Below, one piece after another: positions 5,313 through 13,954 of a stretch of DNA of 30,044 bases. Origin of the DNA: an uncultured archaeon (GTDB taxonomy: Archaea; Iainarchaeota; Iainarchaeia; Iainarchaeales; GCA-2688035); NCBI GenBank assembly GCA_964354805.1, contig CAYHBD010000007.1, positions 1-30,044 on the forward strand, given 5' to 3'. Each line of letters begins with the position of its first letter. Position 1 is the first letter of the stretch. The notes below the pieces were generated by a model that worked only from the letters and a program-made list of their open reading frames with translations, did not search any database and was not told where the DNA came from. A program made the position numbers and the translations under genes.

Positions 5313-5356
5313 TTTTCTTTTGGTACAGATTTTCTTTTCCTAAAAGAAAATCTGTA
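5313..5356. repeat. Family B hairpin repeat at the tRNA-Arg 3' end
   Basis: TTTTCTTTTGG then the perfect inverted repeat TACAGATTTTCTTTT-CCT-AAAAGAAAATCTGTA (5324-5356). Confidence 0.85.
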
Positions 5357-5357
5357 A

Positions 5358-5449
5358 CGGACCCGGAGGGATTCGAACCCTCGACCTACTGCTGACCCCC
5401 TTTGGAAAGGTAGAAGGCAGTCGCCCTATCCAGGCTAGGCTACGGGTCC
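5358..5449 (-). tRNA. tRNA-Arg(TCT) with 17-nt intron at 37/38 (5394-5410)
   Basis: GGACCCG/CGGGTCC acceptor, ACTGC/GCAGT anticodon stem, GAGGG-TTCGAAT-CCCTC T arm; BHB motif with CTTC/GGGG helix and TAC/TCA bulges; no CCA. Confidence 0.95.
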
Positions 5450-9744: not shown

Positions 9745-9795
9745 TGAAAATCAGATAAGAAAAAAGGTTTAAGTGAATAAAAAGCTTGCGATTGT

Positions 9796-9879
9796 AAAGC
9801 CATTTTCTTTTGATACAGCTTTTCTCGCGAAGCCACTTTTCTTTTGATACAACTTTTCTTTTTCTAAAAGAAAAGTTGT
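9796..9879. repeat. Family B tandem units plus hairpin at the tRNA-Leu 3' end
   Basis: Two AAGCCA(C)TTTTCTTTTGATACA units; the second continues into ACAACTTTTCTTTT-TCT-AAAAGAAAAGTTGT, ending on the discriminator base. Confidence 0.85.
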
Positions 9880-10008
9880 GCGGGAGGGCGGATTCGAACC
9901 GCCGAAGCCACTAAGGCACCAGCCAACTGCAGCTTTTTCCCAAGGCTTTTTTGCCTTGCAAAAAAGGCTTCCTCAAGCTGGCGGAATAGACCGCTATCCG
10001 ACTCCCGC
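9879..10008 (-). tRNA. tRNA-Leu(GAG) with 46-nt intron (9925-9970)
   Basis: GCGGGAG/CTCCCGC acceptor, CCAGC/GCTGG anticodon stem, long variable arm, GGCGG-TTCGAAT-CCGCC T arm, A discriminator; mature length 84 nt. Confidence 0.92.
9933..9970. repeat. Family A hairpin repeat inside the tRNA-Leu intron
   Basis: CTTTTTCCCAAGGCTTTTTTGC-CTT-GCAAAAAAGGCTT. Confidence 0.9.
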
Positions 10009-10605: not shown

Positions 10606-10850
10606 CGCGGGGGACGAGATTCGAACTCGCGCTTCCGTGAGGAAACACGCTGATTGGAATTTGGGTTTCTTTTCCCAACAGCCTTTTTAACAAAAAGGCT
10701 GGCGAAAAAAGTTCCTTTTCCCAAGGCTTTTTTGCGTGAGCAAAAAAGGCTTAGCCGTTAGGCATTTTTTCCTTTTCTTTCCCAAGGCTTTCTTTTTCTA
10801 AAAGAAAGGCTTTTCCAGGCGTGCGCATTAGACCGCTCTGCCACCCCCGC
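10606..10850 (-). tRNA. tRNA-Ser(GGA) with 161-nt intron (10652-10812)
   Basis: GCGGGGG/CCCCCGC acceptor, CACGC/GCGTG anticodon stem, CT-GGA-A|A loop, long variable arm, GCGAG-TTCGAAT-CTCGT T arm, G discriminator; mature length 84 nt. Confidence 0.9.
10666..10812. repeat. Three family A hairpin repeats inside the tRNA-Ser(GGA) intron
   Basis: Units at about 10666-10702, 10714-10752 and 10771-10812, each TTTCCCAA followed by a hairpin ending AAAGGCT(T/G). Confidence 0.9.
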
Positions 10851-12065: not shown

Positions 12066-12185
12066 GAAGCAATTTCTTTTGATGCATTTTTTCCTGGCGA
12101 AGCCCATTTTCTTTTGATGCTTTTTTTGTAGCGTTTTTTTCTTTTAATGCACGTTTTCTTTTTTTCCTAAAAAAAGAAAAAGTGC
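12066..12185. repeat. Family B tandem units plus hairpin at the tRNA-Ser(TGA) 3' end
   Basis: Three TTTCTTTT(G/A)ATGC units; the last runs into GCAC-G-TTTTCTTTTTTT-CCT-AAAAAAAGAAAA-A-GTGC (12149-12185). Confidence 0.85.
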
Positions 12186-13056: not shown

Positions 13057-13138
13057 TTTTGGGAAAAGCAGGCGCTCTATGCGATTGCGAAGCAATCGCC
13101 CTTTTCCCAAGGCTTTTTTCCCGTAGGAAAAAAGGCTT
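13057..13138. repeat. Composite palindromic element containing a family A repeat
   Basis: TTGGGAAAAG...CTTTTCCCAA outer arms, inner GCGATTGC-GAA-GCAATCGC (13081-13099), family A unit 13101-13138. Confidence 0.85.
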
Positions 13139-13826
13139 ATGCTTTTTGCAGCAAATAGTTTTTTTCAATTTGCAGGAAACCTGTTTTTGCCTTTGCTTCA
13201 ACAAAGTTCAGCAGGTTGTTGAATGCAATGAAAGAAATGCTGATTCCTGCCGCGAATGCGATTCTTTCAGTTGCTGTTATTGGGATAAGCATTGCCCATT
13301 GCTCTGCCGTCATTGGAACAGTCCAAGCAAAAATAACTGAGCCTATTGCGTGGGCAGTGAATGTTGCCCCAAGGCTGCGCAGGAACAATCGCTTGCTGAA
13401 CACTTTTGCAATCAACGGGATTGTCCAGAAGAGCGAGTAATACCATGCTTCCCTGCCAACAGGGTGCAAAATGAACAAGGCAATGCATGCGGTTGGAATT
13501 GCCGCGCTTGCTTTTGAGAAATTGTTCTTCTTGAGGAAAAATGCGAAGTAGAATGTTGCAAACAGCATTGGCAGCAATCTTAAAATATTCAGCAATTCAA
13601 TTGCTTTTCCTGCAATCGCGAAATCCAGCAATTCAGCAAAGAAAACAGAGGCAATTCCAATAACCGGACCGAGAAAAGCGCCTGCTATCGGGCCAATGAA
13701 CTGGAAGAAGGTAAAGTATTGGGCCGTGCTGCCAACAAGCTGAGAGAAATTGATTCTGCCGGCGATTAAAACAACTATAGTGAATAGAACAAAGAAAACT
13801 ACCTTTTTGAAATAGCTGTTTTGCAT
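13137..13826 (-). CDS. Integral membrane protein, ECF transporter S-component-like
   Basis: 229 aa from ATG 13826 (GGTGG RBS); about 6-7 TM helices; GPIAGAFLGPVIG resembles the S-component signature; directly downstream of folC. Confidence 0.65.
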   Translation of the reverse strand: MQNSYFKKVVFFVLFTIVVLIAGRINFSQLVGSTAQYFTFFQFIGPIAGAFLGPVIGIASVFFAELLDFAIAGKAIELLNILRLLPMLFATFYFAFFLKKNNFSKASAAIPTACIALFILHPVGREAWYYSLFWTIPLIAKVFSKRLFLRSLGATFTAHAIGSVIFAWTVPMTAEQWAMLIPITATERIAFAAGISISFIAFNNLLNFVEAKAKTGFLQIEKNYLLQKA

Positions 13827-13954
13827 TAAGCCCACCAAGAATAATAACAATAAAAAAGAGGCAATTGTTTAAAAATGTTTTCACAAAAAAAATGCCTGCT
13901 CTGGCTTTTGCAAAAAATGCTTTTGATTTTAAAAAAACGTTCAATAAATTGCTT

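Follow-up and report, generated by a model that had tools for sequence, protein, structure and literature searches.

Canonical bulge-helix-bulge (BHB) introns of archaeal tRNA genes lie between nucleotides 37 and 38 and have a central helix formed with nucleotides 32-35 (PMC5829648, PMC4090602). Transposition of tRNA introns has been described in the Thermoproteales (Fujishima et al. 2010, in the part relayed by PMC4090602), where its mechanism is given as unknown (PMC4090602), and an Asgard study of 2026 offered no general route by which tRNA introns arrive (bioRxiv 10.64898/2026.10.13.758758).

We analyzed a stretch of 30,044 nt (the window) from the genome of an uncultured member of the Iainarchaeota, in which the introns of tRNA-Leu(GAG) and tRNA-Ser(GGA) are headed by the same repeat. 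These introns share with canonical BHB introns the position, a predicted helix with nucleotides 32-35 (in a relaxed form in Leu(GAG)) and the presence of a splicing endonuclease gene, but differ in having a genome-wide repeat as their body and an outer helix in competition with the stem of that repeat. No description of this element in DPANN or Iainarchaeota was found in a literature search that covered mostly papers outside subscription. We consider it just about probable that the repeat is a protein-less DNA module, joined head-first at tRNA junctions by a putative enzyme and tolerated at 37/38 through removal by the endonuclease. A module of 37 nt stands at the start of three quarters of the introns, and is thus a candidate route for the gain and replacement of archaeal tRNA introns. 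The relevant features of the window are as follows.

5313..5355, minus: type-B repeat copy, 2 nt behind tRNA-Arg(TCT)
5358-5449, minus: tRNA-Arg(TCT), which default ARAGORN takes for tRNA-Glu(TTC); its 37/38 intron has 17 nt and no repeat
9786..9879, minus: type-B copy from the discriminator base of tRNA-Leu(GAG), then degenerate modules
9879-10008, minus: tRNA-Leu(GAG) gene, missed by default ARAGORN and Rfam
9971..10008, minus: its 5' exon, last base G37; near-identical exons occur in intronless orthologs
9925..9970, minus: its 46-nt intron at 37/38
9934..9970, minus: type-A repeat copy of 37 nt heading this intron
9970-9966, minus: leader (5 nt) of this copy
9965-9960, minus: T arm
9959-9953, minus: apical part
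9952-9947, minus: A arm
9946-9939, minus: 8-nt linker
9938-9934, minus: mirror A tail
9925..9933, minus: end of the intron, 9 nt after the repeat
9879..9924, minus: 3' exon, last base discriminator A73
10606..10850, minus: tRNA-Ser(GGA) with a 161-nt intron (10812-10652); missed by default ARAGORN and Rfam
12070..12184, minus: type-B-like copy with decayed modules, immediately downstream of intronless tRNA-Ser(TGA), whose discriminator G73 is part of the stem
13080..13138, minus: type-A copy and second hairpin; the leader overlaps the TAA stop of ORF 13137-13850

Repeat copies at tRNA splice sites and RNA ends

A preliminary description of the window had placed the repeat exactly at the 5' splice site of two unrelated tRNAs, and our results agree: the leader AAGCC opens the Leu(GAG) intron right after G37, and the Ser(GGA) intron opens alike after A37. 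The latter is made of type-A copies starting at 10812 and 10752, together with another hairpin (10670-10715) that has a tail on each strand. Four of the five type-A copies in the window (starts 9970, 10812, 10752 and 13138) carry the C.C mismatch that had been noticed, located at the second basal pair, and the fifth (10679, plus strand) has a perfect stem.

The Leu(GAG) intron occupies the canonical archaeal site. In the canonical motif, two bulges of 3 nt flank a central helix of 4 bp. Its last 9 nt, of which three pair with intron nucleotides 2-4, four face tRNA nucleotides 32-35 and two lie in the 3' bulge, are predicted to complete a relaxed BHB with an outer helix of 3 bp and a central helix of three out of four pairs (one U.G, and one A35.G mismatch). 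An alternative RNA fold involving the tail is also predicted. One metagenome contig skips exactly 9925-9970; these contigs are short mixtures of relatives, and the source is possibly another organism.

A genome-wide search with the pattern of the preliminary description returned 57 exact matches, against none for a reversed control, and a structural search of the host genome (G000; other G and L labels denote related genomes and loci) returned 109 copies, against 1-4 in Markov controls. It had been allowed that copies might be confined to the window, junctions random or the mismatch not kept; none of the three was found. Of 22 genomes from the same family, 16 contained the pattern, the richest with 110 copies. 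Overall, genomes with the pattern were mostly Ca. Iainarchaeum; matches in other DPANN groups were scattered, and viral contigs gave none. A looser element detector, with about 40% background, was used only with added filters, and relaxed ARAGORN (-ps85) yielded mostly false genes. The copies are mostly extragenic and form mosaic arrays with second hairpins, about 90 of them over 204 kb of non-coding DNA in the host. In the first 300 nt of L083, read on the minus strand, two modules are separated by a 25-nt direct repeat present three times, a small array of CRISPR-like layout. Standard annotation overlooks the repeat-bearing tRNA genes.

At least 15 of the 21 parsed 37/38 introns of the host were headed by the repeat (17 with two genes read by hand), where about 0.03 would be expected by chance from that density of arrays. 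Across eight genomes, the module headed 63 of 82 parsed canonical introns, a few of these calls being borderline, and ten genomes together held 75 such introns. The orientation was invariant in all 63, with a leader of 4-10 nt (mode 5-6). The central helix had all four pairs in 46 of these introns and three in 17, compared with 9.6% of swapped introns having four, a contrast somewhat inflated by the intron parser, which rewards central-helix pairing. The smallest introns consist of the module plus 9-12 nt, and extra modules lengthen them.

The 19 introns without a module would be expected if the repeat had only invaded ancestral BHB introns at 37/38, inserting at or replacing their 5' part, with intronless genes representing precise losses. 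We regard this as unlikely; it has the mobile module in common with the explanation that we prefer, and minimal introns that are little else than the module and its pairing end count against it.

Several side observations concern tRNA genes of these genomes. The host tRNA-Val(GAC) gene (G000 C30:64785-64905) has C, not the usual U, at position 33, where U would complete the central helix. Host genes with non-canonical or double introns, in the D arm and anticodon stem (G000 C18:1231-1338, C45:31-158, C9:80936-81081, C30:27107-27279 and C10:32800-32960), are mostly repeat-free at these introns. At 1-103 of the window, upstream of the leucyl-tRNA synthetase gene, a 48-nt sequence occurs twice in direct orientation, with 81% likeness and a spacing of 55; both copies contain a TATA-like word.

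Outside introns, copies lie behind RNAs, between genes and inside genes, on both strands. Some begin at the discriminator base of a tRNA or no more than 2 nt from it, others adjoin the 3' side of RNase P RNA and 23S rRNA, and antisense copies at tRNA 5' ends are directed away from the gene. About nine arrays have their first base in a stop codon or shortly after it, and the AA of TAA comes from the leader (among them window 13102-13138 and G000 C9:82688, C16:23293, C16:64971, C16:77681 and C46:11853). At G000 C9:82688, a 29-nt duplication seems to split a gene. Away from tRNAs, no strand bias relative to genes was seen (23:15 between co-oriented genes, 6:3 inside genes), and no bias by replication strand (GC skew) was detected in this fragmented assembly. 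Copies away from tRNAs had no pairing segment behind the tail (mean score 1.84 vs 1.78), which ruled it out as a general targeting guide.

This strong preference for mature-RNA boundaries would also suit a domesticated signal, a fold kept for a host role at RNA processing sites and spread by gene conversion, and orthologous introns across families do keep the module at their start while its tracts change in step. However, copies occur inside genes in both orientations, target-type duplications flank some of them, and the close relatives G004 and G010 do without the repeat. We consider such a role highly improbable, whether in general or in the particular forms of pausing, end protection, protein binding or the blocking of integrase attack on tRNA genes.

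Predicted fold of the module

The hairpin reported in the preliminary description is real, but a third tract had been overlooked. Behind its T/A hairpin, the element has a purine tract that mirrors the purine arm. Among copies with asymmetric arms, the first run of the tail matched the arm in mirror order in 78 cases, in direct order in none and otherwise in 3. The spacing of a second G changes accordingly. Covariation was seen within the linker between positions 2 and 7, which are C-G in copies with the mismatch and G-C in those with a perfect stem, and between positions 3 and 6 (C-G or T-A). Because the copies are related by descent, the counts cannot be read as independent events, but many distinct tract patterns contribute to them. 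That the tail competes for Watson-Crick pairing with the T arm was ruled out (0 of 81). A bias toward GNA or GNNA loops in the main hairpin was weak (27 vs 21).

From these patterns, we infer that the mirror tail encodes an intrastrand triplex. Because linker positions 2-7 and 3-6 covary, the "mismatch" base is likewise predicted to pair within a small chain-reversing turn, a reading that we prefer to the earlier idea of a REP-type recognition mark. If real, this would be a natural A/T triplex backed by covariation.

The tRNA strand has the class II, purine-motif arrangement, and the opposite strand the class IV, pyrimidine motif. RNA triplexes are of the pyrimidine type only, and the purine motif cannot form in RNA (PMC4666352). 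The arrangement thus suggests that selection acts on the DNA or on the opposite strand. This bears on an RNA route, in which excised introns would be reinserted into RNAs by the endonuclease and ligase acting in reverse and then fixed by RNA-templated DNA repair. Such a route would explain why the head is the exact 5' end of an excised intron, why its orientation in introns never varies, and why copies sit behind RNase P and 23S RNA ends. We nevertheless think it a long shot, as the conserved third tract would be a purine-motif triplex on the RNA strand, and as both the T-loop cassettes (see below) and the copies at 5' ends run antisense to the tRNA and copies show no sense bias in mRNAs.

Probable gain, loss and replacement of introns among relatives

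The presence of the module among relatives is patchy. The tRNA-Leu(GAG) gene is intronless in G006, G008, G023, G033, G034 and 8 of 15 metagenome loci; G000, G002 and L342 have a module-bearing intron there, while in G016, G026 and others the intron is free of the repeat. The last six intron bases, including the one in the A35.G mismatch, are common to G000, G002, G016 and L342. Because the module-bearing introns and that of G016 share these bases, the Leu(GAG) intron may be older than its present repeat body, and for this gene invasion of an existing intron is at least as likely as creation.

Invasion alone would also fit the finding that some isotypes have introns nearly everywhere (Leu-CAA 7/8, Gly-CCC 6/6 and Ser-GCT 4/4) and others never do, and the precise losses that it requires have a parallel: in an RpoB tree, G004 (introns in 0 of 21 tRNAs, 2 strict copies of the repeat) is nested with G016 (15 of 24, 110 copies), and G004 must have undergone wholesale precise intron loss. 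However, introns confined to a single genome of the sample (Ala-CGC, His, Glu-TTC, Trp and Pro-CGG) are all module-headed, which suggests, on thin sampling, that they are gains. Moreover, the 3' parts of orthologous introns, outside the required pairing, are no more alike (0.35) than those of unrelated introns (0.34-0.36). We therefore prefer the reading in which some introns were probably created by the module and not merely invaded; the earlier suggestion that the repeat can build and lengthen tRNA introns is supported. In G002 (loci among L471-L500), two tRNA-Asp(GTC) genes have unlike introns, of which a single one starts with the repeat.

As in the Thermoproteales, related intron sequence occurs in unrelated tRNA genes and appears to be gained between close lineages. 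Unlike there, only the 5' module is common and it is also found outside introns. When the introns of each genome were compared with one another, 1 of 383 pairs reached 80% identity or more, a measure different from that by which 28.3% of Thermoproteales introns belong to such families (bioRxiv 10.64898/2026.10.13.758758). Transposition of the Thermoproteales type was rejected since, beyond that one pair, near-identical whole introns did not recur in different tRNAs of a genome. Likewise, the preliminary description had considered the spread of introns by reverse splicing, and as a general route for whole introns this is contradicted by the unshared bodies, the many antisense copies and the lack of a reverse transcriptase above the cut-off in the 23 family genomes searched, which also weigh against the RNA route.

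Since the module comes and goes between congeners and leaves footprints elsewhere, gain, replacement and loss of introns become directly testable. If the creation of introns by the module is true, it would be a direct source of archaeal tRNA introns.

Putative insertion footprints, enzymes and known systems

The T loop of tRNA genes is a known crossover site of integrases. In one class of copies, which we call T-loop cassettes, an intact tRNA is followed by a gene-free insert of 60-120 nt and then by a copy of nucleotides 54-73 that abuts the head of the module, which lies on the antisense strand. Twenty-four distinct cassettes were found in more than 10 genomes and at many isotypes, including a Leu(GAG) gene (L342), and in the first 11 read, identity ended at T54 or one base earlier. 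Cassettes carry the complement of the duplicated end behind the tail (score 16.1 vs 11.8 +/- 2.5 for non-cognate ends); the cognate tRNA end scored best for 12 of 19, and in one cassette the complement forms a 12-bp helix. Because non-tRNA copies lack such a complement, it may have been made at insertion or selected afterwards. In 9 of 21 cassettes, the commonest case, the helix behind the tail stops short of two flank bases; the 5' splice site of a BHB has the same arrangement, which would fit the RNA route.

Three copies in the host lie between direct repeats of 22, 29 and 29 nt, the first repeat ending exactly at the head, and one of the three belongs to the cassette class. A clear target duplication was seen in 3 of 103 copies, and most copies are without one; no fixed target word was found at insertion sites. 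Two further loci were observed near tRNA genes. A tandem-duplicated T-loop cassette lies behind tRNA-Ala(GGC) in a genome without introns (L194/L357; G004 C16:89400-89600). In the host, tRNA-Ser(GCT) is immediately followed by a tyrosine integrase gene (L345; G000 C10:30398-31699) and, beyond it, by genes of viral or plasmid character, with no repeat-linked att copy and no att duplicate in the assembly.

Previously, only Y1 enzymes of the IS200 type were found in Archaea (PMC6006769). A Y1/RAYT transposase flanked by the repeat had been envisaged for this element, but none of 30 Y1 loci in the host and related genomes (61-99% complete) was bracketed by it, and one had a single copy nearby. The host has two intact-looking IS200-type elements with TnpA only (L001:530-1150 and L002:1200-1804), whose ends are hairpins of their own, unrelated to the repeat. 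A RAYT/TnpA mobiliser was rejected on account of the unflanked Y1 loci and ordinary IS200 genes. An origin as an IS200/IS605-derived miniature was rejected because the ends of the resident TnpA elements are unrelated and the repeat has 20-29 nt duplications without a fixed tetranucleotide target. A search of 23 family genomes gave no Cas1 or casposase above the cut-off, and the genes bracketed by copies, judged from their sequence to encode housekeeping or membrane proteins, gave no REPtron-like case.

The host has one tRNA splicing endonuclease gene (L280:1474-2031, minus strand), whose 185-aa product is closest in size to the homotetrameric type. The Tyr and His of the catalytic triad are kept, and the Lys position is Thr, beside a Lys-rich loop. 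Compared with Methanocaldococcus EndA, Thr occupies this position in nearly all of 30 relatives (L382-L410 among them), the few exceptions involving Ala and Lys. Such DPANN endonucleases have been tied to more disrupted tRNA genes (PMC5829648).

In the explanation that we favor, the module would be a small protein-less mobile DNA element of Iainarchaeota. Its single strand would fold so that the purine arm of the hairpin is bound by the mirror third tract, with the 8-nt linker forming the turn. A putative trans-acting enzyme would recognise this fold and join the head of the module to a strand end at structural junctions, most of all in tRNA genes. The sites there would be the anticodon loop on its 3' side, the tRNA ends, and the T-loop edge, with duplication of nucleotides 54-73 at this last site. 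An insert at 37/38 would survive only if the bases behind the tail pair with nucleotides 32-35, so that the endonuclease can remove it; the module with 9-12 nt would then make a minimal intron, which further modules would lengthen. That the modules represent a class of mobile elements defined by a triplex fold and not by terminal repeats, inserting at tRNA loop edges with a target-derived complement and creating spliceable BHB introns de novo through a novel type of enzyme, seems to us somewhat unlikely.

Among known systems, the cassettes resemble the att duplications left by integrases at the T loop and the Caldiarchaeum intron-gain model (PMC3293823) in having an intact tRNA, an insert and a copy of the 3' end. 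They differ from integrase islands in being 60-120 nt long and gene-free, occurring at many isotypes, carrying the complement of the duplicated end, and having no integrase in or beside the element.

The preliminary description had read the repeat as REP-like. Like REP/BIME sequences associated with TnpA-REP (RAYT) (PMC6006769), it consists of imperfect hairpins in many copies, dispersed outside genes in mosaic arrays, with lineage-specific subtypes, and the fixed junction and kept mismatch also stand; the link to an HUH (RAYT/TnpA) enzyme does not. No REPtron was found for the module, and it lacks the conserved GTAG-type guide tetranucleotide at the 5' foot of the hairpin. Its flanks are instead a stem-pairing leader and a subtype-variable code-plus-tract, and it has the third mirror tract, tRNA targeting and 20-29 nt duplications.

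The bacterial intrastrand-triplex repeats BoxC, PIT and TMECO (Holder et al. 2015, PMC4666352) have the same class II order of pyrimidine, purine and mirror-purine tracts, and are also short, dispersed and sometimes in inverted pairs. By contrast, the module is archaeal, its tract patterns covary between copies, and by eye it is A/T-rich with another leader and linker than the G/C-rich bacterial consensus; it also has a fixed head at tRNA splice sites and ends, is flanked by duplications in some places, and appears to build introns. By analogy, the element would work like a REP/BIME or IS200-type single-strand element and be built like a PIT/BoxC triplex repeat.
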